NCBI GenBank assembly: GCA_963782075.1
Contig: CAWAIJ010000010.1
Location: forward strand, 62,526 to 126,525
DNA: 64,000 bases
Origin: an uncultured Actinomycetota bacterium
GTDB lineage: Bacteria; Actinomycetota; Actinomycetes; Propionibacteriales; Nocardioidaceae
Reading direction: 5' to 3'
The translations under genes were made by a program, and so were the position numbers. The notes beneath the pieces are model-generated. The model searched no databases, was not told where the DNA came from, and saw only the letters and a program-made list of their open reading frames with translations. How positions within the stretch are numbered: position 1 is the stretch's first letter; each line of letters opens with the position of its first letter. Below, in pieces: positions 12,984 through 50,996 of the stretch.

Positions 12984-14306
12984 GTGAAGCGCGCCCACCT
13001 GGGGTACAACTCGGCCGTGAGCGTGTCGGGCGACGACCCCGCCGAGGGGATGGTGATCGGCCCCTATCGCATCGTCCGTGAGATCGGCGGCGGTGGCATG
13101 GGGGTCGTCTACGAGGCTGCCGACGACGCCCTCGACCGGACCGTCGCGCTCAAGATCATCTCCCCGCACCTCGCGGCGGACGAGGAGTTCCGGGCCCGGT
13201 TCACCCGGGAGGCGCAGGTCCTGGCCGCGCTCGACTCGCCGCAGGTCGTGCACGTCTACGCGCACGGTGAGGTGGACGGCCAGCTCTACCTGGCGACCCA
13301 GCTGATGCCGGACGGGGACCTCGCCGGGATGCTGCAGCAGTACGGCGCCCCGCCGGTGCGGGTCGCTCTCGACCTGGTCTCACAGGTGGCGGCCGGCCTC
13401 GCCGACGCCCACGAGGGCGGCATGATCCATCGCGACATCAAGCCGGCCAACATCTTGCTGCGACGACGCGGCAACACCATGTCCGCCTGTCTCGGTGACT
13501 TCGGCATCGCCCGCAAGCTCGCCGGGGAGGCGACCCACGCCAGCCGGACCGGGACGGTCGGCACACCCTCCTACATGGCCCCCGAGCTCCACACCGGGGG
13601 CCAGGCCGGGGTGGCCAGCGACGTCTACTCCGTGGGCTGCCTGCTCTGGGCGGCGCTCAGCGGCCAGGCGCCCTACCGGGGGACGACCGAGTACCAGATC
13701 GTCAGCGCCCACCTCGAGCAGCCGATCCCGCAGCTGCCGGGTCAGTCGGCGCTGGTGACCGAGGTGAACCGGATCCTTCGGACCGCGATGGCGAAGGACC
13801 CGGCCGACCGCTACGCCAGCGCGTCCCGGCTGCGCGACGACCTGCGGCGGGCCAGGTCGCTGCCCCTCGTCGGCGGTGCCCGCACCGGTCGGATGGTCGG
13901 GGCCGGCGGGCAGCGCGCGCTCACCGCGGGACTGGTCGGGTTCGGACTGCTGCTCGTGGTCGCGGCGGTCGTGTGGGGCGTCACCCACGACGACGATCGG
14001 CCGGTGGCTCGTCACTCCCGGCCGGCGACCAGCGTCAGCCCTCAGGTCCCCGGTACGACGAGCGGCGCCGACGTGGCGCGCGCTCGAGACAGCCTGGCCG
14101 AGGCGCTGCAGGCGCAGGGCCTGCTCACCGAGGAGCAGGCCGCCTGCACCGCCGAGGAGTGGATCGACGATGTGGGCCTCGACGCGATGATCGCCGAGGG
14201 CTTCTTCGACGACGACCTCAACTTCGTCGACCAGCCGGCCGCGGAGATGTCGCCGGAGATGCAGTCGGCGGCCACGTTGGCGACCGTCACCTGCGTGACG
14301 CCCTGA
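12984..14306 (+). CDS. Hanks-type Ser/Thr protein kinase with one TM segment and a roughly 100-aa extracytoplasmic tail
   Basis: IGGGGMGVVYEA, ALK, HRDIKPANILL, DFGIA, TPSYMAPE. TM segment: ALTAGLVGFGLLLVVAAVVWGV. An alternative start exists at ATG 13050 (MVIGPYRIV). Confidence 0.9.
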   Translation: MKRAHLGYNSAVSVSGDDPAEGMVIGPYRIVREIGGGGMGVVYEAADDALDRTVALKIISPHLAADEEFRARFTREAQVLAALDSPQVVHVYAHGEVDGQLYLATQLMPDGDLAGMLQQYGAPPVRVALDLVSQVAAGLADAHEGGMIHRDIKPANILLRRRGNTMSACLGDFGIARKLAGEATHASRTGTVGTPSYMAPELHTGGQAGVASDVYSVGCLLWAALSGQAPYRGTTEYQIVSAHLEQPIPQLPGQSALVTEVNRILRTAMAKDPADRYASASRLRDDLRRARSLPLVGGARTGRMVGAGGQRALTAGLVGFGLLLVVAAVVWGVTHDDDRPVARHSRPATSVSPQVPGTTSGADVARARDSLAEALQAQGLLTEEQAACTAEEWIDDVGLDAMIAEGFFDDDLNFVDQPAAEMSPEMQSAATLATVTCVTP

Positions 14307-14309
14307 TCC

Positions 14310-15782
14310 TCAGGCGTAGCGGGCGGCCCGCTCGGCGGGGGTACGGGGGCCGGTCGCGAGCAACGTGCTGAGCTCGTGCTCGAGGACGAGCCCCACCCGC
14401 TGGCAGAAGGCCTCGGCTTCGTCGGCCGCGTCGGGCTTCTCGGCGACGATCCGGTCGACGACACCCATCCGGTGCAGGTCGAGAGCGCGCACCTGCTGGG
14501 CGCGCGCCATCTCCGGTGCGTGGTCGAGGTCGCGGTGGACGATCGCGCTCGCACCCTCGGGTGGCAGCGGCGAGAGCCACGCGTGCTGGGCGGCCACGAC
14601 CCGGTCGGCCGGCAGCAGCGCCAGCGCGCCGCCACCGTTGCCCTCGCCGAGCATCAGGCACAGGGTCGGGGCGTCGAGGGTGACCAGGTCGGCCAGGCAC
14701 CGGGCGATCTCGCCGGCCAGCCCGCCGTTCTCGGCCTCAGGGGAGAGTGCGGCGCCCTGCGTGTCGATCACCGTCAGCAGCGGCAGCCCCAGCTCGCTGG
14801 CCAGCCGCATCCCGCGCCGAGCCTCCCGCAACGCCTCCGGACCCATCGGGTGGTCGGGCGTCTGGCCGCGACGGTCCTGGCCGAGGAACACGCACGGCGC
14901 GGACCCGAACCGCACCAGCGCGATCAGCAGGCCGGGGTCGGCCTCGCCCTGACCGGTGCCGTTGAGCGGCACGACGTCGCTGGCGGCGTACCTCAGCAGG
15001 CGTCGTACGCCGGGGCGGTCGGTGCGGCGGGAACGGGTGACCGCGTCCCAGGTGTCGACGTCCTGGATCGGGTCGTCCGGCGGCTCCGGCACGGTCGGGA
15101 CGCCGAGCCGCGGTGCCATCAGGACGGTCAGCGCGCGGTCGAGGATGTCGGCGATCTCGTCGGGCGCGATGACCGCGTCGATGATGCCGTGGGCGTAGAG
15201 GTTCTCCGCGGTCTGCACGCCCTCGGGGAACGGCTTGTCGTAGAGAGCCTCGTAGACCCGCGGCCCGAGGAAGCCGACCAGTGCACCCGGCTCGGCGACG
15301 GTGACGTGGCCGAGCGACCCCCACGACGCCATCACGCCGCCGGTGGTGGGGTGGCGGAGGTAGACCAGGTAGGGGAGACCCGCCACCCGGTGGGACGCGA
15401 CCGCTTCGGAGATCCGCACCATCTGCACGAACGCGGGCGTGCCCTCCTGCATCCGGGTTCCGCCGCTGACGGGGGCGGCCAGCAGCGGCAACCCCTCCTC
15501 GGTCGAGCGGGCGATCGCCGCGACCAGCCGGTCGGCGGCGGCGCGACCGATGGAGCCGGCCAGGAAGCCGAACTCACCGACCAGGACCGCCACTCGACGG
15601 CCGCGCATCAGACCTTCGCCGGTCACCACGGACTCGTCGACGCCACACTTCTCGGCAGCCGCGGCCAGCTCGTCGGCGTACGCCTCGCTGATCTCGCCGC
15701 GCTCAGGGGCGACGTCCCAGCTCTGCCAGGACCCCTCGTCGAGGACGAGCTCGATCAGGTCGTGTGCGGAGAGTCGGGCCAT
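14310..15782 (-). CDS. Fused acyl-CoA carboxylase carboxyltransferase (AccD-like N-half plus AccA-like C-half)
   Basis: N-half: GRRVAVLVGEFGFLAGSIGRAAADR...GGTRMQEG. C-half: GLPLLTVIDTQGAALSPEAENGGLAGEIARC...LGEGNGGGALAL. The start was moved to MARLSAHD (15782). Confidence 0.8.
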   Translation of the reverse strand: MARLSAHDLIELVLDEGSWQSWDVAPERGEISEAYADELAAAAEKCGVDESVVTGEGLMRGRRVAVLVGEFGFLAGSIGRAAADRLVAAIARSTEEGLPLLAAPVSGGTRMQEGTPAFVQMVRISEAVASHRVAGLPYLVYLRHPTTGGVMASWGSLGHVTVAEPGALVGFLGPRVYEALYDKPFPEGVQTAENLYAHGIIDAVIAPDEIADILDRALTVLMAPRLGVPTVPEPPDDPIQDVDTWDAVTRSRRTDRPGVRRLLRYAASDVVPLNGTGQGEADPGLLIALVRFGSAPCVFLGQDRRGQTPDHPMGPEALREARRGMRLASELGLPLLTVIDTQGAALSPEAENGGLAGEIARCLADLVTLDAPTLCLMLGEGNGGGALALLPADRVVAAQHAWLSPLPPEGASAIVHRDLDHAPEMARAQQVRALDLHRMGVVDRIVAEKPDAADEAEAFCQRVGLVLEHELSTLLATGPRTPAERAARYA

Positions 15783-21456: not shown

Positions 21457-21647
21457 CCGCTCACCCTAAGTGCACCATCGCGCCCGGACGCACCTGGACT
21501 GTGCAGTCATTCCACTGCCATTGCCCTCCGCAGGAGAAGACACTGGCCAGTCACTCGACCAGGCGTCGGTCGCGGTTGAGGTAGGCGCTTCACAGGGTTG
21601 GGGACGAGGGGTTGCGGGTGTCGGCGGCGTGCCGTATGATCGAACGT

Positions 21648-23021
21648 ATGTTCGAACAAGCATCCCAGCGAATCCGGGAGGGCGCCTCGGTGGCGCCCCC
21701 GGAAGACGTGGATGCCCAGACGGTGGCGGGGTGGGCGGCAGCCCTCGCCTGTAGCGAGCTCGCGCTGGACGACCCCGCACGGATCGACCTGATCCGGGCG
21801 TTGGAGGAGCTGAAGTGCGCGGCCGAGGGCGCGCAGGCCCAGGTGGCGGCCGAGTTCGAGAACTCCCAGCGCGCGGTAGCTGAGCAACGCGGGGTTCCGG
21901 CCGAACGACGGGGTCGGGGGATCGCCGAACAGATCGCGCTGGCTCGTCGCGAGTCGCCCCACCGGGGCCGCCGCCACCTGCGACTGGCCCGGGTGCTCCA
22001 CGAGGAGATGACCTGCACCGCCGCGGCGCTGCGGGCAGGCAGGATCACCGAGTACAAGGCGTCCCTGCTCGCGCACGAGACCTCGTGCCTGTCCCGCGAG
22101 GACCGCATCATCGTGGATGCCACGATCTCCGGCGACCCCGCCCGGGTGGAGGAGATGGGCGACCGCCAGGCCGCGGCGCAGGCCCGCAAGCTGGCTGCCG
22201 AGCTCGACGTGGAGGCGGTGGCTGAACGGCGCCGGCGGGCCGAGTCCGAGCGCCACGTCTCCGTCCGTCCCGCCCCGGACACCATGACCTGGCTGGGAGC
22301 GTTGCTGCCGGTCAAGGACGGCATCGCCGTGTTCGCCGCGCTCAAGGCAGCGGCTGACACCGCCCGGGCGAGCGGCGACCCACGAAGCCGCGGCCAGGTC
22401 ATGGCCGACACGTTGTGCCAACGCGTCACCGGCGCTGCCGGGGATGCCACGGCTCCCACCGGCGGACGCGGTACGTCGACGCCGGTGTCGCTGGGTGTGG
22501 TCATGACCGACGGCGCCCTGTTCGCAGGCGCCGACGACCCCGCCCACCTCGAGGGCTACGGCCCGATCCCCGCCGACCTGGCCCGGGAGCTCGTGGCTCA
22601 CGCCATCAGCGCCGGCGACCGGGTCTGGCTGCGCCGGCTCTACACCCACCCCGGCACCGGTGAGCTGGTCGCCATGGACTCCCGGCAGCGGCTCTTCCGT
22701 GACGGCCTCGCCGCGCTGATCCGGCTGCGCGACCAGACCTGCCGCACCCCCTGGTGCGATGCCCCGATCCGCCGCGGCGACCACGCCGTCGAGCACCAGT
22801 CGCGCGGGCCGACCAGCCTCGAGAACGGCCAAGGCCTCTGCGAGGCCTGTGACCTGGCCAAGCAAGCGCCCGGCTGGCGGGCCTCACCCGTGGCCGACAC
22901 CGTCGGCCACCAGATCGACACGACCACCCCCACCGGACACCGCTATCGATCGCGAGCGCCGGCGCTCACGCGCCCGCCCTACCGACTCACCCAGCCCGGC
23001 GTGTGGACCTTGGTCGCCTGA
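21648..23021 (+). CDS. DUF222 plus HNH endonuclease domain protein (REP13E12-like)
   Basis: N-terminal DUF222-like helical region (LIRALEELKCAAEGAQAQVAAEF). C-terminal HNH region: CRTPWCDAPIRRGDHAVEHQSRGPTSLENGQGLCEACDLAKQ. The start is taken as MFEQAS (ATG at 21648). Confidence 0.85.
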   Translation: MFEQASQRIREGASVAPPEDVDAQTVAGWAAALACSELALDDPARIDLIRALEELKCAAEGAQAQVAAEFENSQRAVAEQRGVPAERRGRGIAEQIALARRESPHRGRRHLRLARVLHEEMTCTAAALRAGRITEYKASLLAHETSCLSREDRIIVDATISGDPARVEEMGDRQAAAQARKLAAELDVEAVAERRRRAESERHVSVRPAPDTMTWLGALLPVKDGIAVFAALKAAADTARASGDPRSRGQVMADTLCQRVTGAAGDATAPTGGRGTSTPVSLGVVMTDGALFAGADDPAHLEGYGPIPADLARELVAHAISAGDRVWLRRLYTHPGTGELVAMDSRQRLFRDGLAALIRLRDQTCRTPWCDAPIRRGDHAVEHQSRGPTSLENGQGLCEACDLAKQAPGWRASPVADTVGHQIDTTTPTGHRYRSRAPALTRPPYRLTQPGVWTLVA

Positions 23022-33400: not shown

Positions 33401-33694
33401 GTGGATGAGCAGCTGATCGCACCGCCCGTGATCTACCTCCCCGTCGAGACCGACGCCGACGGCCAGGTGGCCGACATCAAGATGATCAAGTTGGGCGACG
33501 GCCGGGTGGCCCTGCTGGGCTACACCGCCCTCGACCGGTTCATCGACGCCTGGGGCGAGCACCAGCCGTGGCTGCTCCTCGAGAGCAACCGCCTCGCCGA
33601 GGTCCACGAGGCGAAGCCCTACGACCTGAAGCTGCTCGACGTCGCCGTGCCCGAGGAGTTCCGGCCCGGTCCGCCGCGGGAGGTGCCGGCGTGA
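33401..33694 (+). CDS. Small SseB-like / SAV_915-like protein, the first gene of the toxin module
   Basis: 97 aa. ...VIYLPVETDADGQ...GDGRVALLGYTALDRFIDAWGEHQPWLLLESNRLAEV resembles the SseB N-terminal fold pattern (x-L-x-x-F/Y-T-x-x-x-x-L). GTG start. Its stop overlaps the next gene's start (GTGA). Confidence 0.5.
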   Translation: MDEQLIAPPVIYLPVETDADGQVADIKMIKLGDGRVALLGYTALDRFIDAWGEHQPWLLLESNRLAEVHEAKPYDLKLLDVAVPEEFRPGPPREVPA

Positions 33695-33978
33695 CGCTGC
33701 GACTCGACGCGGGAGCCGCGGCCCGGATCGCCGGCGGCCACGACGACGCGGCCTCGACGATCGACGGCTCGGCCGGTAGCGCGCCCGGAACCGTCGACGC
33801 CGGCTACGGCTCGGCGTACGTCACCGACATCCTGGCCGCCGTCACCGAGACTGCCGGCGAGATCGCCGCGATCAACGTCGGGATCGCCGCGCTGGTGCGC
33901 GACGTCGCCGACTCACTCGGGCGCACCGAGGACGAGATCGCGCGCGAGTTCGACTCGATGGCGAGGGTCGGCGAATGA
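33691..33978 (+). CDS. Small helical protein resembling EspC/DUF2580 'type VII secretion target' proteins
   Basis: 95 aa. VTLRLDAGAAARIAGGHDDAASTIDG...AGEIAAINVGIAALVRDVADSLGRTEDEIAREFDS has the size, helical Ala-rich character and 'L-x-(V/L)-D-x-x-A-(L/A)-x-x-x-A' opening typical of that family. It is coupled to both neighbours. Confidence 0.45.
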   Translation: MTLRLDAGAAARIAGGHDDAASTIDGSAGSAPGTVDAGYGSAYVTDILAAVTETAGEIAAINVGIAALVRDVADSLGRTEDEIAREFDSMARVGE

Positions 33979-35117
33979 CGGAGATGGACACGCGGGTCGA
34001 GGGCGACCCCGGAGCGGTGACCAAGGCCGCGACCTGGTTGCGCGACACCCTCTCCACCAACCTCGCGACCGCCGGTGACGACCAGCAGGACGCCCGCAAC
34101 GACGCCCGGGGCAGCTGGGAGGGCGAGACCGCCTCGTCGTACCAGAACGTCGCCGGCGACACCCTCAAGGCCACCGACAAGCACGAGGAACGGGTCAAGC
34201 GGGCCGCGACCGCGCTCGACCAGTACGCCGCGCGCCTGCAGCGCTGCATCAACGAGATGACCGCGATCAGGGGCCGAGCCACCACCGGCGGCCTGACCGT
34301 CGCCGGCACCGTCATCCACTCACCGCCGGACGCGCCGTCGACCTCGTTCGAGGTCGGCTCTCCCGAGGAGACGGCGTACAACGACGCGGTCGCCAAGGTC
34401 GAGCTGTGGAACACCCTGGTCAACGACACGTCGAAGACCTACCAGGACTTCGTCGACTGGGTGGACTCCCAGCTGCCCCCGGACGTCGCCGACGCGCGTG
34501 AGAAGGACGGGTCCGACACCCTTCTCGGCGTGCTCGAGGACGCGTTCCCGAACTTCGCCGGCGGCATCGGCGCCGGCCTCATCGGGTTCGGGCTGCTGGG
34601 CAAGGCGGACGACTACACGGCGGCCGCGCGCGAGTTCCGCCGCAGGAGCCGGGTCTCGGGCGACCCGCGGGTCCGCGGCTCGGCCGACACCCCGTCGGGG
34701 AGGGTCAAGCTCGACGACCTCCTCGGCAAGGCCGACTGGCTCGGCAAGGGAGGCCGGTTCCTCGGCGGCCCCGGAGGCATCCTGATCGACGTCGGCTTCG
34801 GCATCCACGAGGGCATGGAGACCGGTGACTGGACCCGGGTCGCCCTCACCACCGGCACCAGCATCGCGGTGGGGGCGGGGGCGGCCGCTCTCGTGGCCGC
34901 GGGCGTGATCTCGGCACCGGCCATCGTGGTGATCGGCGGGACCGCGGTGGCCGCGATGGCCCTCTCGGCCGGCGTCGGCTACGTCTACGACAACTGGGAC
35001 GACATCACCGACTGGACCGGCGACCGGGTCGACGACGTGACCGACTTCGCCTCCGACACCTGGGACAGCGCGACCGACGTCGCCGGTGACGCCTGGGACG
35101 CCGTGACCCCGTGGTGA
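33975..35117 (+). CDS. Candidate T7SS-exported polymorphic toxin: WXG-type helical N-domain, glycine-zipper membrane domain and acidic Asp/Trp repeat tail
   Basis: Residues 1-100: GDPGAVTKAATWLRD...ARGSWEGETASSYQNV...ALDQYAARLQRCINEMTAIR, with W48-E-G50, as in WXG100/LXG-like T7SS signal domains. Glycine-rich hydrophobic segments: FAGGIGAGLIGFGLLG, GGPGGILIDVGFG and GTSIAVGAGAAALVAAGVISAPAIVVIGGTAVAAMALSAGVGYVY. Tail: DNWDDITDWTGDRVDDVTDFASDTWDSATDVAGDAWDAVTPW. Confidence 0.6.
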   Translation: MTEMDTRVEGDPGAVTKAATWLRDTLSTNLATAGDDQQDARNDARGSWEGETASSYQNVAGDTLKATDKHEERVKRAATALDQYAARLQRCINEMTAIRGRATTGGLTVAGTVIHSPPDAPSTSFEVGSPEETAYNDAVAKVELWNTLVNDTSKTYQDFVDWVDSQLPPDVADAREKDGSDTLLGVLEDAFPNFAGGIGAGLIGFGLLGKADDYTAAAREFRRRSRVSGDPRVRGSADTPSGRVKLDDLLGKADWLGKGGRFLGGPGGILIDVGFGIHEGMETGDWTRVALTTGTSIAVGAGAAALVAAGVISAPAIVVIGGTAVAAMALSAGVGYVYDNWDDITDWTGDRVDDVTDFASDTWDSATDVAGDAWDAVTPW

Positions 35118-35785
35118 GCGATGACGCAGCGCGCCGGCTGATCCCGCGCTGGTTCACCGTCGCCGTCCTGGCGGCGCTGACGGTCCTCACGGCCACGGCG
35201 TTCGGGTTGTCCTTCGCCTTCGACGGTGTGCTCGGGTGGTCCTTCCGAGTCATGTTCGTCTTCGCGGCTCTGCTCCTGGTCTCTGCCGTGTCGGCGCTCG
35301 CGCGCCCCCGACGTCCCCAGGAGCCGGTCGTCGCCGCCGACGGCACCCGGACCTTCCTCGCCCCCGCAGCCACGGTGTGGCCGCTGGTCGGAGCGATGGT
35401 GGCCATGATGGCGGTGGCCGTGATGTGGGCCTACGTCGCGGTCACCGACTTCGGCTCGCTGGAGTCACCCGGCTTCGCCCTGGTGACCATCGGTGCGGCG
35501 GTGGTCGCGATCCCCGACTTCCTGCGGCTGGTCACGGGTCGGCTGCACCGCTGGCGTCTCGAGCTCGGGCCCGAGTCCCTCCGCTACCGCGGCTACCGCA
35601 CCGACCTCACCTGGCCGTGGTCGAAGGTCCACGGCGCCCGGATCCAGGCGCGTGGTCCGGCGGGGGTGCTCATCGACGTCAAGGGCGCCGGCGAGGACCC
35701 GGTCGTGCCGATCACCGCGTTCGCCGTACCCGCCGAGCAGCTGATCGAGGAGATCGAGCGCGCCAAGGCCACGGCCCGCCGCTGA
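35111..35785 (+). CDS. Polytopic membrane protein with a C-terminal bacterial PH-like domain, candidate cognate immunity protein
   Basis: Four hydrophobic segments (FTVAVLAALTVLTATAFGL; VMFVFAALLLVSAVSAL; VWPLVGAMVAMMAVAVMWAYV; FALVTIGAAVVAIPDF). These are followed by LHRWRLELGPESLRYRGYRTDLTWPWSKVHGARIQ...VLIDVKG...PITAF. The GTG start overlaps the toxin stop by 7 nt. Confidence 0.55.
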   Translation: MVSDDAARRLIPRWFTVAVLAALTVLTATAFGLSFAFDGVLGWSFRVMFVFAALLLVSAVSALARPRRPQEPVVAADGTRTFLAPAATVWPLVGAMVAMMAVAVMWAYVAVTDFGSLESPGFALVTIGAAVVAIPDFLRLVTGRLHRWRLELGPESLRYRGYRTDLTWPWSKVHGARIQARGPAGVLIDVKGAGEDPVVPITAFAVPAEQLIEEIERAKATARR

Positions 35786-46659: not shown

Positions 46660-47376
46660 ATGTCCACCACCACGCCCACCCAGTTCCTGCTCCCCGGGCA
46701 GGCGGCCGCCCCGGCCGGACCGATCGACATGAACCACATGTACGTGATGCATCACGGCTTCCGTCGTGACCTGATGCGGTTCGTCGAGGCCGCGCAGGGC
46801 ACCCCGGTCAGCGCTCGCGACACCTGGCGGGCGCTGGCCCGCCGTTGGGAGCTGTTCGCGCTGCTCCTGCACCACCACCACTCCGGGGAGGACGCCACGC
46901 TGTGGCCTGCCCTGGAGGCGCGGGCCGACGAGGCCGGTCTGGCCACGCTGGCCGCGATGGAGGCCGAGCACGGCGAGATCGACCCGCTGCTGGCAGCGTG
47001 TTCGCAAGGCTTCACCCGTCTGGCTGAGGTGGCCGATGACGACGCCCGTCGAGCCCTCTCCGTGCGCCTGGTCGCCACGCGGGAACGGCTCGGAGCGCAC
47101 CTGCGGCACGAGGAGACCGAGGCCATCGAGCTGATCCAGGCGGTGTTGACTCCGCAGGAGTGGCACGAGATCGACGAGGTGTTCCGCAAGGAGATGACCT
47201 TCGCCCTGGTGCTCCAGATGGTCCCGTGGGCGCTGTCGGGACTGACCGACGACGTCCGGCACGAGCTCTTCACCCAGCCCGGCGGTGCGGGGTACCGGGT
47301 CGTGGCGGCGTTGACCTGCCGCAGGTTCGAGCGCCAGGAGCGCCGTACGTTCCGCTACATCCCGGCGTCGGACTAG
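46660..47376 (+). CDS. Hemerythrin (HHE cation-binding) domain protein
   Basis: MHHGFRRDL...LLLHHHHSGEDATLWPAL...MEAEHGEID...HLRHEETEA show the hemerythrin-like His/Glu ligand pattern. A GGAGGA RBS lies upstream. Confidence 0.8.
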   Translation: MSTTTPTQFLLPGQAAAPAGPIDMNHMYVMHHGFRRDLMRFVEAAQGTPVSARDTWRALARRWELFALLLHHHHSGEDATLWPALEARADEAGLATLAAMEAEHGEIDPLLAACSQGFTRLAEVADDDARRALSVRLVATRERLGAHLRHEETEAIELIQAVLTPQEWHEIDEVFRKEMTFALVLQMVPWALSGLTDDVRHELFTQPGGAGYRVVAALTCRRFERQERRTFRYIPASD

Positions 47377-50300
47377 AAGCCGAAGCGCTCCCGGACCCCG
47401 TCGAACCAGGCGGCACAGCGGGGGATGCCCCACTGCTCCATCAGGGCCACCGCGCCGTCGGCATGGCGGGAGGCCGCCTCCCGCTCACCGGCGGCGCACG
47501 CGGCCATGGCCAGGAACGCGTCCACCGGACCTTCGGCCACGCTGGAACCGGACGCGACGACGGTGCCGACATACGGCGCCAGCTGGGCGTAGGTGCTCTC
47601 GCCGAGATCGGGGTCATCGACCCACAGTGCGGTCTCGGCGGCGGCGGCGATCAACAGCATCGAGAACCAGTCCATCGCCCCCGGCAGGTCGATGGGGTGG
47701 GCGGTCACGAAGTCCCGGGCCCGCTCAGGATCGCCGTCGCGGATCATCATCTGGCACAACAGCGAGGTGACCGGGAGCGACGTGGTCTCGTGCGTCGACA
47801 GCAGCGCCGGCAACAAGGCCCCCACGTCGCCGCTCCACATCTCCATCGACAGTGCCGCACCCAGCAATGCCTCCTTGAGCTGGAACAGCACCACCCGTTG
47901 GCTGGTGTGCTGCATCCGGGCCATGGCCTCTCGGGCGTCGTTCTCACGACCGGCCATCGCCAGCCACGGCACCACGAGACCGTCGAGCACGATCAGTCCG
48001 TAGGGGATCCGGAGCCGCTCGGCCTCCGAGCGCGCACCCGCCTCGACCTGCCACATCTCCTCGACCCGACCGAGCTCGGACAGGGCCACCGCCCGCAAGG
48101 TCGCCGCCACCACGAACCGGGGCCCGTCGCCCAGACGTTGGGACAGCTCCGACGCCTCCGCCGCCAGCGCCAGCCGCTCTGCAGCCGTGTCCGGCCGCCA
48201 CAGCGAGATGAACCCGGTCAGGCAGGCGTCGACGAGCAGCGCGTCGTCAACGAGACGGCGGGCCATCGCCAGCGACTCCTCGACCAGGGCCGCGCGTTCC
48301 TCGTGTCCAGCGAGGAAGTAGAGCTCTGACGCCAGGGCCGTCATCACCCGGCAACGCTGGGAGGAGTCGCCGGTCGGCAGCTCGGTCAGAACCCGCCTGA
48401 GCGCCGCGATCTGTCGATGGTGGACCTCGCCGTAGCCGGAGGTCTGCCAGAAGGCGCCGATGGTCATGATCGTCGCGGCCTTCGCGAGCGCCTCGGGGTC
48501 ACCGACGGTCTCGGCCACATCGAGGGCGAGCTCGGCTGCCTCGCGGAGGCGCGGCCACTGCCCCGACCAGCGCTCCGCATCAGCGAGCTCGATCAGCACG
48601 CCCAGCCGGTCGTGGTCGTCAAGGGTGGGGTCCTCAGCCATCACCTCGAGCGCCTGGCGCAGCAGCAGCGCCGCCTCCTCGTGCGCGTGGAGGAGCCTCG
48701 CCACCGCAGCGGCGCGTACCGCGGCGCGCCACGCGTGGCCGGCGTGCTCGACCCCGGCCGCGAGCCAGTGCCGCGCCACCTCGGTCTCCCGACCGGGTCG
48801 ACCCTCGAGGGCCGCCGCGACCCGGGCATGGGCGCGGGCCGCGCGGGTCGGGCCGAGCGCTTCGTACGCCGCATCCCGGACCAGCGCATGACCGAAGGAC
48901 CAGCGGCCCACGCCGTCCTCGCGGACCAGGCCGACACTCACGGCCCGCTCGACTCCGTCGATCAGGTCGTCCTCGCTGTCGCCGGTGGCGGCGACGAGGC
49001 TGTCGAGGTCGAAGGAGCGGCCCACGACGCTCGCGGCGCGCAGCGTGGCCGCGTCGGCATCGGACAGTCTGCCGATCCGCCGCGAGACCACGTCGCGCAC
49101 CGCGACGGGCGCTGCCGTCTCGGTCAGGAGCACGGCGAGGTCGCCTTCCTGGGCGAGCCGGGCGAACTCCACGAGGTAGAACGGGTTGCCGTCTGTACGC
49201 CGCGCCAGCTCTTCGGCGTCCTCAGAGCTCGGTTCCGTGCTGCTGATGGCGGCCACGACGTCCCCGGCGGCGGCACCGTCGAGGCCGGTGAGCTCGACCC
49301 GGACCGCGTGGGCCCGCGACATCGCCTCGGCGACGTCGGCCAGCGCGCCGGTGGGCTCGGGGTGCGGGCGCCAGGTCGCCAGCACCAGCAACCGACCCGT
49401 GGTGAGGGTCTCCACCAGCAGTCGCAGCACTTGCAGGCTCGCGCGGTCGGCCCAGTGGAGGTCGTCGAGGACCACCACGATCGTCTCGTTGCGGGCCGCA
49501 TCGCGTACCCGCTGCACGATCGTGTCCCAGGTCCGGAAGCCGGCGCCGTGGTCGACCGAGTGCTCGACCTCCAGTTCGCGGTCGAGGCCCCGCAGCACCT
49601 GCTGCCACGGCCACAGCGGTGGCGCACCGTCGTCCTGGGAGCACCGGCCGACCAGCAACCGGGCTCCAGCGTCGACGGCTCGCGCCCCCAGCTCGGCGGC
49701 CAGGCGGGACTTGCCGATCCCCGGCTCGCCCGTGAGCGTCGCGTAGGTCGGTGCCCCGGCGACCGCACCCTCGAGCGCGTTGCCGAGCCGGGCCAGCTCG
49801 CCGACCCTGCCCACCATCGGCCAGGCGGGGAGTGACGGGCGGTGCGATGCCGATCCGCTCGCCGATGTCGTCGCGGACGGGGGCCCGGTCGGTGACGAGT
49901 CGTTGCCCGCTTCCCAGCGGAGCGCAGGGTCCTGGCGCAGGATCCGCACCTGGAGGTCGCGCAGCTCCTCCGACGGCTCCAGCCCGAGCTCGTCGTCGAG
50001 CAGGTCGGCCAGCTCGCGCAGCACGTCCAGGGCGTCGGCCTGCCGGCCACCGTGGACGAGGGCCAGCGCCCGCAGCGCCCAGAGCCGCTCGCGCATCGGG
50101 TAGGTGCCGGTGAGCGCCTCGAGCTCGGCGGCGACCGGCGCGTGCGCTCCCTGGGCGAGTCGGACAGTGGCGCGATCCTCCAGCGCGACCGTGCGCAGCT
50201 CGTCGAGCCGCGCCCGCTCGGCCCGGACCACGTCGGCGTCACCGAGGTCGGCGTACGCCTCGCCCCGCCAGAGGGCCAGGGCTTCGTCGAGCTCGGTGAC

Positions 50301-50711
50301 GATCGCGGCCAGCTCCTCGGCGCGCAGCGCCGGTCGGGTCAGCAGCCCGGACCGGCCGAGCCGCCGGTTGGTGTCGGAGACGGCCCGCTGGAACCGCGTC
50401 GCGTCGAGGGCGTCATCGTCGATCCGCAGGGCGTAGCCGGCGCCGACCGTGACCAACATCCGAGCCGGGGCGCGCGGAGCACGATCCGGCTCGAGGGTGC
50501 GTCGCAGCGCTGCGATGTAGGCGTGCAGTGTGCCGGGCAGCGCCTCGGGTGGCTCGTCGCCCCACATCATGTCGACGAGGGCGTCGTAGGTGACCGGGCG
50601 ACCGCTTGCCATCGCCAGGGTGGCGACGATCTGGCGCAGCTTCATGGAGGTGAGCTCCAGCGGCTGGCGGTCGCGCTCCACCGTGGTCTCGCCCAGGACG
50701 CTCACGCGCAT
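47373..50711 (-). CDS. SARP/AfsR-family regulator: OmpR-type winged helix, BTAD, NB-ARC-like P-loop ATPase and TPR-like C-terminal half
   Basis: MRVSVLGETTVERDRQPLEL...LVTVGAGYALRI (trans_reg_C), a BTAD region (ATRFQRAV...LWRGEAYADL...LRLA) and Walker A GEPGIGKSRLAAE. Walker B is VVVLDDLHWAD. A long helical repeat region follows. The start was moved to 50711, inside track ORF 47373..50978. Confidence 0.88.
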   Translation of the reverse strand: MRVSVLGETTVERDRQPLELTSMKLRQIVATLAMASGRPVTYDALVDMMWGDEPPEALPGTLHAYIAALRRTLEPDRAPRAPARMLVTVGAGYALRIDDDALDATRFQRAVSDTNRRLGRSGLLTRPALRAEELAAIVTELDEALALWRGEAYADLGDADVVRAERARLDELRTVALEDRATVRLAQGAHAPVAAELEALTGTYPMRERLWALRALALVHGGRQADALDVLRELADLLDDELGLEPSEELRDLQVRILRQDPALRWEAGNDSSPTGPPSATTSASGSASHRPSLPAWPMVGRVGELARLGNALEGAVAGAPTYATLTGEPGIGKSRLAAELGARAVDAGARLLVGRCSQDDGAPPLWPWQQVLRGLDRELEVEHSVDHGAGFRTWDTIVQRVRDAARNETIVVVLDDLHWADRASLQVLRLLVETLTTGRLLVLATWRPHPEPTGALADVAEAMSRAHAVRVELTGLDGAAAGDVVAAISSTEPSSEDAEELARRTDGNPFYLVEFARLAQEGDLAVLLTETAAPVAVRDVVSRRIGRLSDADAATLRAASVVGRSFDLDSLVAATGDSEDDLIDGVERAVSVGLVREDGVGRWSFGHALVRDAAYEALGPTRAARAHARVAAALEGRPGRETEVARHWLAAGVEHAGHAWRAAVRAAAVARLLHAHEEAALLLRQALEVMAEDPTLDDHDRLGVLIELADAERWSGQWPRLREAAELALDVAETVGDPEALAKAATIMTIGAFWQTSGYGEVHHRQIAALRRVLTELPTGDSSQRCRVMTALASELYFLAGHEERAALVEESLAMARRLVDDALLVDACLTGFISLWRPDTAAERLALAAEASELSQRLGDGPRFVVAATLRAVALSELGRVEEMWQVEAGARSEAERLRIPYGLIVLDGLVVPWLAMAGRENDAREAMARMQHTSQRVVLFQLKEALLGAALSMEMWSGDVGALLPALLSTHETTSLPVTSLLCQMMIRDGDPERARDFVTAHPIDLPGAMDWFSMLLIAAAAETALWVDDPDLGESTYAQLAPYVGTVVASGSSVAEGPVDAFLAMAACAAGEREAASRHADGAVALMEQWGIPRCAAWFDGVRERFGF

Positions 50712-50840
50712 GGTCGGAGCATAGGGACTGAGCCCTCCAAGCGGCATCCAAGCCGCTCGCAAGTCCACTGCAAGTAGACCGCGGTTCAGTAGGACACACG
50801 ACGGACCGCCGTCGTGAGTGAAACCCGAAGAGGAACAGCC

Positions 50841-50996
50841 ATGACCACCATCACGACCCGCACGAGAGCCGCACGACGGCGTACGAGGGCAGTCAGCCGC
50901 GCCACGCTCGCGGCGCGCTCCGACCGCCCGATGACCTACTACCCGACACGCACCCAGACCTCCGTGGAGGCGCTTCACCTGCTGCGCAACCGGTGA
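50841..50996 (+). CDS. Hypothetical 51-aa Arg/Thr-rich small protein
   Basis: MTTITTRTRAARRRTRAVSRATLAARSDRPMTYYPTRTQTSVEALHLLRNR. The ATG is preceded by GAAGAGGAA at a 5-nt spacing. About 43 of 50 codons end in G/C, consistent with coding, but I recognised no homology. Confidence 0.3.
   Translation: MTTITTRTRAARRRTRAVSRATLAARSDRPMTYYPTRTQTSVEALHLLRNR

Follow-up and report, generated by a model that had tools for sequence, protein, structure and literature searches.

Background

In Staphylococcus aureus, the secretion system of type VII (T7SS) exports TspA, a substrate in which an LXG domain is combined with a C-terminal domain that was modelled on colicin Ia. TspA depolarises cells from the outside, and its immunity protein TsaI is a polytopic DUF443 protein with five transmembrane segments that occurs in tandem copies, ten genes in number (PMC7456083). 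LXG-T2 of Streptococcus suis is likewise a T7SS toxin, with a glycine zipper and a membrane-depolarising activity (PMC12955049). In Actinomycetota, antibacterial T7SS toxins were first shown experimentally in 2026 with EatA of Mycobacterium abscessus, an ESX-4-dependent GH183 arabinanase which is encoded after two small Tap genes and before its immunity gene, away from the T7SS cluster (PMC13444075). Similar Eat loci are reported across the Actinomycetota, with many payloads of unknown function and with membrane-type immunity for those toxins that act outside the cytoplasm, and of the candidate toxin sequences which that study found in M. abscessus, 47% are without a predicted function (PMC13444075). 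Esx substrates of Actinomycetaceae, which limit Saccharibacteria epibionts, have adjoining WXG100-like hairpin genes, and those of Schaalia also adjoin small WXG100-like hairpin genes (PMC13622651). The present work deals with a four-gene cassette, and in particular with its third gene (gene 3), in a stretch of 64,000 nucleotides from an uncultured member of the Nocardioidaceae (assembly GCA_963782075.1, contig CAWAIJ010000010.1, positions 62,526 to 126,525), which as a whole is called the window below.

An initial annotation, made from the letters of the window, had proposed gene 3 to encode a non-enzymatic, TspA-like T7SS membrane toxin. To this proposal we add the anatomy of the protein, the composition and conservation of its cassette and its similarities at profile level. 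On balance we lean, by a small measure, towards gene 3 encoding an antibacterial toxin that is exported by the T7SS, inserts into membranes and depolarises them or forms pores, and that is paired with a cognate immunity protein, where export, target, toxicity and immunity are what we infer. The original proposal is strengthened by WXG100/PPE-like matches, by the toxin-locus layout, by the duplication of the membrane-protein gene and by the profile similarity to colicins; it is not proven, and no T7SS core genes were found among the nearby ORFs scanned. Toxin-immunity systems of such kind are already known, and the gene-3 family is one that has not been described before.

Results and discussion

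Gene 3 belongs to a large family and to a conserved cassette

The open reading frame (ORF) of gene 3 is real, as are most of the features first described in it. The GC content of the window is about 0.70-0.73, typical of an actinobacterium, and that of the ORF by codon position is 0.67/0.53/0.96, as expected for a real gene in a high-GC genome; independent gene callers made the identical call on two public contigs. The ORF lies in the following cassette:

33401-33694, plus strand: gene 1, encoding p97 (97 aa), with a SAV_915/SseB domain (NF042914), a candidate peptide-binding chaperone for a hydrophobic toxin
33691-33978, plus strand: gene 2, encoding p95 (95 aa), acidic, of no family and read as helix-loop-helix (weak profile match), a candidate Esx-like or Tap/Lap-like targeting partner
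33975-35117, plus strand: gene 3, encoding the toxin candidate (380 aa; ORF list, homologues, composition)
35111-35785, plus strand: gene 4, encoding a protein of 224 aa in which four hydrophobic segments precede a soluble PH-like domain at the C-terminus (hydropathy, position), a candidate cognate immunity protein

About 100 homologues of the gene-3 protein, of 365-385 aa, share 35-82% identity with it over their full length, and nearly all of them come from Nocardioides or related metagenome bins, under the name "hypothetical protein" or "YukE", the latter given to some members by JGI. A full profile search extended the family to at least 913 cluster representatives at E <= 1e-3 (463 at E <= 1e-10; clusters at 50% identity), which are mostly 350-425 aa long and match end to end, named members including Cellulomonas bogoriensis and Actinomyces wuliandei. 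Searches of Pfam, NCBIfam and PADLOC placed the toxin candidate, p95 and the gene-4 protein in no known family above threshold, and no enzymatic family was detected in Pfam or NCBIfam, in agreement with the initial annotation, which had seen no enzymatic motif.

Along the cassette, which is translationally coupled, each stop codon overlaps the following start codon (GTGA between p97 and p95, ATGA between p95 and the toxin candidate, GTGGTGA between the toxin candidate and gene 4), and the order p97, p95, toxin candidate, membrane protein is the same in each of the 23 genome loci, which come from Nocardioides, Aeromicrobium and Marmoricola. Two small genes directly upstream of the toxin candidate, as in the LXG/Lap loci of Firmicutes or the Eat/Tap loci of Mycobacterium, both of them T7SS toxin loci that have been characterised by experiment, are found in 23/23 loci, one of the two (p97) being SseB-like rather than a helical hairpin. 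We found the cassette in three or more unrelated neighbourhoods: between amidohydrolase and convergent PucR regulator genes, which also flank it in the window, next to tuf and a methyltransferase gene with S8 peptidases in N. zeae, and next to NYN and topoisomerase I genes in N. limicola. As it is found in at least three chromosomal neighbourhoods, the cassette behaves as a self-contained module. Around it, no sigma-70-like promoter or intrinsic terminator was found, and the window has no tRNA or Rfam matches.

For p97 the match is to the NCBIfam model NF042914 (SAV915_dom; E = 8e-16, 57.6 bits compared to a cutoff of 40), accompanied by a weak Pfam SseB match, and the GC content at third codon positions of its gene is 0.96. 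By a published prediction, SseB domains act as chaperones of the Tic22-like kind that bind peptides (PMC9503650). A search of the literature on the function of SAV_915 or on a T7SS of Nocardioides returned nothing. The gene for p95 is called at 95 aa on a public contig as well. Its product lacks a WxG motif and has a conserved loop SAPGxVDAGYG. The p95 profile gave weak matches to EsxA of S. aureus and ESAT-6 of M. tuberculosis over nearly the whole of p95, at E 0.3-0.9, which is not significant.

A WXG100/PPE-like N-terminal domain

Residues 1-175 form a putative WXG100/PPE-like secretion domain, to which weak and consistent matches point:

33975-34499, plus strand (residues 1-175): N-terminal WXG100/PPE-like helical domain, a putative T7SS trafficking domain (AlphaFold2, Pfam, Foldseek)
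34116-34124, plus strand: W48-E49-G50 (WxG) turn (conservation; position between predicted helices)

The AlphaFold2 model of the full-length protein, made with 31 homologues, has a predicted local distance difference test score (pLDDT) of 59 overall; in the N-terminal domain the values are mostly 73-96, with block means of 48-64 in the region of the WxG turn (about residues 31-70). It predicts helices at 12-47, 51-104 and 130-175 and a short strand at 113-115 that pairs with a strand at 3-5. W48-E-G50 sits between the first two helices, as in a WXG100-type turn, and among the 31 relatives W48 is nearly invariant and G50 invariant. The two-helix WxG hairpin first proposed for residues 1-100 is hence present, as part of a module which is larger than was thought, reaching to about residue 175 with a third helix (130-175) and a strand motif (105-117). 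This predicted three-helix domain of about 175 residues, of moderate to high confidence, can be set beside the targeting domains of LXG/Lap and Eat/Tap loci, which measure about 150-200 residues and in the LXG subclass also match the LXG model.

The strands carry the motifs IDTxVxGxP at the N-terminus and the highly conserved GGLxVxGTxIxxP at 105-117, and the near-invariant columns of the broad family are confined to this domain (T6, G10, W21, L22, G50, R99, A102, G106, L107 and P117). The WXG100 superfamily and T7SS substrate domains comprise the Pfam models PF06013, PF25547 and PF21725 and the model TIGR03930. In the set of 31 members, Pfam matches were obtained to WXG100 in 17/31, to T7SS_signal in 8/31, to PPE in 7/31 and to WXG100_2 in 2/31 (best 8.6e-6), LXG being absent from the Pfam matches of the window protein and of the 31 members; one distant relative (P0221) passes the WXG100 threshold (28.8 bits compared to 27.3). 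A Foldseek search of the PDB with the full-length model gave nothing significant, the matches being generic long helices together with PPE proteins: few are non-trivial, and PPE15 (5xfs_B; probability 0.85, TMt 0.53) and PPE4 belong to these.

A membrane-grade hairpin and an acidic repeat tail in the C-terminal half

In the C-terminal half of the protein, the payload in the toxin reading, we distinguished four parts:

34530-34682, plus strand (residues 186-236): Gly-rich amphipathic helix FAGGIGAGLIGFGLLG, then a conserved basic segment EFRRRSRVSGDPRVRG (hydropathy, C-domain model, conservation)
34731-34922, plus strand (residues 253-316): colicin-pore-like stretch including IDVxFGIxEGxETGDW (profile comparisons)
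34839-34988, plus strand (residues 289-338): Ala/Gly-rich helical hairpin (hydropathy, model, conservation)
34989-35114, plus strand (residues 339-380): acidic, Trp-rich repeat tail (repeat register in homologues)

The initial annotation had seen three glycine-zipper hydrophobic segments here, and the three stretches are indeed found at residues 194-209 (FAGGIGAGLIGFGLLG), 264-276 (GGPGGILIDVGFG) and 288-338. The sole stretch of transmembrane grade is that at about 289-338 (Kyte-Doolittle, 19-residue window, above 1.5, with a maximum of 2.29), the other two being Gly-rich, below this grade, and parts of longer Gly-rich helices. In an AlphaFold2 model of the C-terminal domain made with 110 sequences (mean pLDDT 72, the hairpin at about 50-60), residues 194-209 fall in a helix at 186-227, with a block-mean pLDDT above 90 from residue 205, and residues 264-276 relate to a helix at 266-283; further helices are modelled at 240-264, 286-308 and 316-339. 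The last two, placed with low confidence, make up a single hydrophobic hairpin, for which residues 288-338 had rightly been considered long enough. No significant structure match to this model was found in the PDB or among viral structures.

Within the hairpin, P315 is invariant and located at the turn, and G294, S296, A326 and G335 are nearly invariant. The G-x-x-x-G zipper originally described did not hold up: the hairpin has small-xxx-small ladders (G294-A298-G302 and G321-A325-A329-G333) and no canonical GxxxGxxxG zipper, classical GxxxG being present at 197-201 and in soluble loops. A match to Pfam Gly-zipper families such as PF13488 was absent from the window protein and its close relatives, and in two distant relatives such a match reached 17-18 bits compared to a cutoff of 25. 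Two helices ending in ETGDW precede the hairpin. In the basic segment EFRRRSRVSGDPRVRG, R223, R226, G229 and P231 are invariant, and residues 216-262, which contain it, have a net charge of +6; a match of this segment to the Msp1 AAA ATPase (PDB, E = 0.014) covers a short charged stretch and was taken as chance.

The tail (339-380) consists of an 11-residue repeat, DxWDxxTDxxG, present in 3.8 copies in the window protein and followed by a nearly invariant VTPW-COOH, of which W380 is invariant. Across 29 homologues, the tail is 27-53 aa long with mostly about 3, 4 or 5 repeat units, and no tandem repeat was found in it at DNA level. As a helix it would be strongly amphipathic (hydrophobic moment 0.40 at 100 degrees), with a net charge of -12. 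A match of the tail to SHERP in a PDB profile search (E = 0.16) is not significant and is noted as a similar acidic helical stretch. Finally, inspection of the sequence and its hydropathy, the basis on which this was judged in place of a signal-peptide predictor, revealed no hydrophobic signal-like segment at the N-terminus.

Profile similarity to colicin pore domains

When a profile of 31 Nocardioides proteins was compared with all PDB sequences, the top match was the channel domain of colicin E1 (2i88, E = 0.05), aligning residues 239-306 with chain residues 85-150. We compared the family by hhalign with nine diverse pore domains of colicin type that were taken from plasmid records (those of E1, K, Ia, Ib, N, S4 and B, one of a Klebsiella protein annotated as colicin-like and pore-forming, and one unannotated), which gave a probability of 91.7% (P = 7.7e-7) over 61 columns with 33% identity, at residues 253-316. 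The full-length alignment gave 89.4% (P = 2e-6) and a C-domain alignment of 14 sequences 80.6% (P = 1.3e-5), this profile-profile similarity of 80-92% covering only 51-61 columns. Compared to the real score of 47.1, 60 column shuffles reached at most 15.6, 60 block shuffles, which keep local composition, at most 24.4, and the reversed profile 21.2, while an unrelated membrane-protein profile gave P = 0.22. In the reverse direction, a hidden Markov model of the colicins matched the family at 16-23 bits in one consistent register.

The shared features are collinear with colicin E1 in the order helix, Gly, [YI]DV helix, T-G-[DN]-W, hydrophobic hairpin, and in the hhalign alignment the predicted helices 240-264, 266-283 and 286-308 run collinear with a colicin stretch that ends in the first hairpin helix. 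T-x-x-W (T135, W138) is invariant in the nine colicins; its counterpart in gene 3, T283-G284-D285-W286, in which G284 is invariant and W286 nearly so, is conserved directly before the 289-338 hairpin. Against this profile support stand four failures: Pfam PF01024 gave no match at E <= 10 among the 31 members; with a smaller C-domain profile, colicin E1 ranked fourth in the PDB (E = 0.17), behind an unrelated AAA protein; in the broad family the TGDW motif is lost and the colicin probability is only 44%; and Foldseek retrieved no colicin with either AlphaFold2 model, in which the hairpin is of low confidence. We therefore hold the relatedness to colicins as plausible, not established, with the arguments on both sides evenly poised, and do not assign the domain to the PF01024 family.

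Gene 4 as a candidate immunity protein, and the question of the target

The gene-4 protein has hydrophobic segments at about 14-37, 40-64, 85-112 and 120-140, followed by the soluble domain, which has a weak bPH_6 match in 6/16 orthologues (best 1.6e-4). Its start overlaps the stop of the toxin candidate, to which it is always immediately downstream. In N. limicola (L005:9096-10417 = L036:11093-12402), gene 4 is present in two tandem copies of 216 and 219 aa, with 38% and 41% identity to the gene-4 protein of the window, and in Aeromicrobium and Marmoricola, where the toxin C-domain is divergent, the protein encoded next is divergent too and keeps the layout of four segments plus a soluble part. 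Position, co-divergence and tandem duplication fit a cognate immunity protein, for which gene 4 is a candidate; no similarity to the colicin E1 immunity protein was found.

These same properties bear on what an exported gene-3 protein would act upon. Epibionts, phage or eukaryotic grazers could be the target of a T7SS-exported membrane-active effector, or the protein could form a pore for the export or uptake of other molecules. A precedent for such a target exists in the limitation of Saccharibacteria by Esx substrates of Actinomycetaceae (PMC13622651), the gene-3 family reaches Actinomyces, and a conserved payload suits a fixed target. A coupled and co-diverging polytopic protein, duplicated in one genome, is on the contrary the signature of self-protection from a toxin that hits kin. 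As to a pore, such a role has been proposed for EsxE/EsxF and some PPE proteins, but the need for a dedicated one is doubtful here, as Nocardioides to our knowledge has no mycolic-acid outer membrane that would require it. We consider this explanation quite unlikely, compared to a toxin directed at competing bacteria.

Conservation and genomic context

Several results weigh against reading gene 3 as an antibacterial toxin, the four colicin failures among them. At the N-terminus, the window protein stays below the cutoffs for WXG100 (15.4 bits compared to 27.3) and TIGR03930 (15.4 compared to 44.85), and in the 31-member set no Pfam match reaches its gathering score, the best being WXG100_2 with 26.2 bits compared to 27. 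The accessory p97 is not a helical protein of the Lap/Tap type. No T7SS core genes turned up, either among the ORFs of the window that were scanned or, for related loci, among the largest ORFs of their +/-10 kb flanks; none of the large ORFs scanned in window and flanks encodes EccC, their products being SARP regulators, an SNF2 helicase, RecC, a mutase and IleRS, and the other window ORFs scanned are ordinary metabolism and regulation genes. Moreover, none of the ten N-terminal-only matches scanned from the top 150 relatives (0/10) carries an enzymatic payload on the gene-3 N-terminal domain. Within Nocardioides, the mean pairwise identity of the payload is 0.59-0.69, compared to 0.45-0.57 for the N-terminal domain, and the toxin candidate and gene 4 diverge at rates close to those of their housekeeping neighbours. 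Neither the better conserved payload nor these rates are what classical polymorphic toxins show, and both suit a conserved role in the cell.

Such a role would be that of a resident membrane protein of the producer, in which the hairpin anchors the protein in the producer's own membrane, with the WXG-like helical domain remaining cytoplasmic or at the envelope and with the PH-like membrane protein as a functional partner, together serving a conserved envelope, stress-response or T7SS-associated function. The conservation of the payload, the near-housekeeping divergence, the lack of linked T7SS genes among the ORFs scanned and of alternative enzymatic payloads among the relatives scanned all favour it, as does the amidohydrolase/PucR context, which is kept in many genomes, and so does the gene-4 protein, whose best conserved part is the soluble PH-like domain and not the membrane segments. 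Conversely, the cassette has travelled as one block between neighbourhoods that are unrelated, gene 4 is tandemly duplicated in one species, and in Brachybacterium a gene-3-type C-terminal module is joined by recombination to a canonical WXG100 N-terminus. Chaperone-like and Esx-like partner genes, moreover, better suit the export of a hydrophobic cargo than ordinary membrane insertion, and the likeness to colicin pore domains also argues for a toxin. A resident protein is in our view the less probable explanation, improbable enough for the toxin reading to be preferred and substantial enough to be carried along with it.

Across the broad family the C-terminal module varies, with TGDW replaced by motifs of the GDSPGQ or GKPPGK type, always ahead of the Gly/Ala hairpin and the acidic tail. 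Word-indexed homology searches with the C-domain profile and with the N-domain profile retrieved only fragments of the same family and no other architectures. In Brachybacterium sp. P6-10-X1 (L006:7397-9970), the protein that combines WXG100 with hairpin and tail is without the upstream small genes, and the product of the next gene is soluble and acidic, with 272 aa, rather than a membrane protein.

The cassette might also be an intracellular abortive-infection or other defence module that kills its host from within upon phage infection and is restrained by the other cassette proteins, as a small, mobile and self-contained cassette with a membrane-disrupting candidate would allow. PADLOC gave no meaningful match for the four proteins, only a weak coiled-coil-type match to ZorA (E = 0.002); no gene-3 relatives, and no cassette, were found in viral contigs; a sensor, nuclease or NTPase component is lacking; and the N-terminal domain belongs to a superfamily of secretion substrates. 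We hold a defence function to be very improbable.

Some further observations were made on the loci compared. In the metagenome-assembled genome (MAG) MFD05176.bin.2.239, two cassette copies (L033:6106-13022 and L018) lie on different contigs of one bin; in the former, there is a duplication of the upstream amidohydrolase gene and of a part of the gene for p97, and frameshifts seem to affect several genes, an arrangement that may stem from rearrangement or from a mixed-strain assembly. In Nocardioides sp. MAG BWSM_104 (L032:11815-18568), a very divergent toxin paralogue (25% identity, E = 8e-9) is located at 13738-14637, about 2.6 kb downstream of the cassette and opposite to it in strand; it is flanked by the genes for a 458-aa protein with the chaperone domains TY-Chap3 and TY-Chap1 and for a 1313-aa protein with SWIM and SNF2 helicase domains. 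Two genes for S8 subtilisin-like peptidases are near each cassette of N. zeae (L003:9978-13093), where they directly follow it, and of N. limicola (L005:14246-17092), where they are about 4.5 kb downstream, so that the proximity recurs in the two species. Three of these peptidases were scanned as possible mycosins and scored 122-156 bits, so far below the cutoff of 279 that they are not mycosins.

Elsewhere in the window, a minus-strand gene at 47373-50978 encodes a 1201-aa regulator with Trans_reg_C, BTAD and AAA_16 (SARP/AfsR-like) and adjoins a beta-lactamase-family gene, and a plus-strand gene at 21612-23021 encodes a 469-aa DUF222 protein, of a family that in actinobacteria frequently goes with HNH endonuclease domains and with mobile DNA. 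Between 16001 and 20000 the GC content dips to 0.66-0.68, compared to about 0.71-0.73 elsewhere, and there are few long ORFs with a high GC content at third codon positions.

Proposed mechanism and significance

If gene 3 encodes an exported toxin, the following course of events can be envisaged. In the producer, the SseB-like p97 would keep the hydrophobic C-terminal half soluble, and the Esx-like hairpin of p95 would pair with the WXG100/PPE-like N-terminal domain into a T7SS-competent helical bundle, with no Sec or Tat signal involved in the export of the complex. Upon reaching a neighbouring cell, the C-terminal module, that is the amphipathic Gly-rich helices, the basic patch, the colicin-like TGDW helix and the 50-residue Ala/Gly hairpin, might bind to the outer face of the cytoplasmic membrane, after which the hairpin would insert as in colicin pore domains and dissipate the membrane potential. 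The acidic, amphipathic tail of 11-residue repeats could aid surface binding or act as a C-terminal recognition signal. The four-segment PH-like protein, in turn, would intercept the toxin within the membrane and as such protect the producer and its kin.

For a class of non-enzymatic toxins that target membranes in soil actinobacteria, the cassette would then be a concrete candidate and a widespread one, and it offers defined parts, namely a chaperone, a partner, a toxin and an immunity protein in their proposed roles, and defined motifs, namely TGDW, P315, the basic RRSRVSGDP segment and the VTPW C-terminus. Should the similarity to colicins reflect common descent, it would lend sequence-level support to the analogy between TspA and colicins, which was drawn from modelling alone. 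In its most far-reaching form, which we regard as rather doubtful, a true, trimmed homologue of the colicin pore domain would be the payload of a large, unannotated family of T7-secreted toxins in Actinomycetota, with at least 900 clusters at 50% identity, and it would have a chaperone of its own (SseB/Tic22-like), a partner resembling Esx proteins, a PH-like immunity protein in the membrane and an acidic tail of 11-residue repeats. Gram-negative colicins and Gram-positive T7SS pore toxins would in that case share one ancestral membrane-insertion module, and gene 3 would be the first pore-forming toxin of a type VIIa secretion system (T7SSa). If gene 3 instead encodes a resident membrane protein, it is a caution against reading every protein with WXG and a hairpin as a toxin.

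Comparison with known systems

With TspA, compared here by its description, gene 3 shares the combination of an N-terminal helical domain for T7SS targeting and a non-enzymatic C-terminal domain, the link to colicins resting on structural modelling on colicin Ia for TspA and on profile similarity for gene 3. Both loci have a downstream gene for a polytopic membrane protein that can be present in tandem copies, its role in immunity being a proposal in the case of the cassette. The N-terminal domain of gene 3 is WXG100/PPE-like without an LXG Pfam match, whereas TspA has LXG; the host of the cassette is an actinobacterium, in which a system of the T7SSa type is expected, compared to the type VIIb system of S. 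aureus; the gene-4 protein has four segments and a PH-like domain and is encoded by one gene, compared to the five-transmembrane DUF443 protein and ten genes of TsaI; and the acidic tail of 11-residue repeats is an extra of gene 3.

The Eat loci, from the same phylum, resemble the cassette in having two small accessory genes, a toxin with an elongated N-terminal helical domain and an immunity gene (a candidate one in the cassette), and they are located away from the T7SS cluster, as the cassette too would be by the ORFs scanned around it. They differ in the payload, which for gene 3 is non-enzymatic and, as we infer, membrane-active, and for EatA is a GH183 arabinanase; in the accessory p97, SseB/SAV_915-like and unlike TapA1/TapA2 as these are described; and in the immunity protein, an integral membrane protein in the case of the gene-4 candidate and a lipoprotein in that of EatI. 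Glycine-zipper toxins of the LXG-T2 type, judged by their description, share with gene 3 the ladders of small residues (Gly/Ala/Ser) in hydrophobic helices, with depolarisation as the expected read-out; unlike these, gene 3 has one hairpin and no repeated zippers. Other glycine-zipper membrane toxins are Tse4, Ssp6 and Tse5-CT of the type VI secretion system and CdzC/D of Caulobacter.

The colicin pore domains, globular bundles of ten helices in which a hydrophobic helical hairpin is buried, share with gene 3 some 61 collinear residues and a T-G-[DN]-W followed by a hydrophobic hairpin of 40-50 residues and then a Y/I-D motif, and they too have an adjoining gene for a small polytopic membrane protein, the immunity protein in colicins and its candidate in the cassette. 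The gene-3 domain is about 30-40 residues shorter than that of colicins, with a basic loop replacing part of the N-terminal half, and where colicins conserve a Glu, eight residues after the Trp, gene 3 has Gly. While colicins use receptor and translocation domains, the delivery of the gene-3 protein would be by the T7SS. Taken part by part, the cassette matches the known T7SS toxin loci except for its SseB-like accessory protein, its PH-like membrane protein and its repeat tail.

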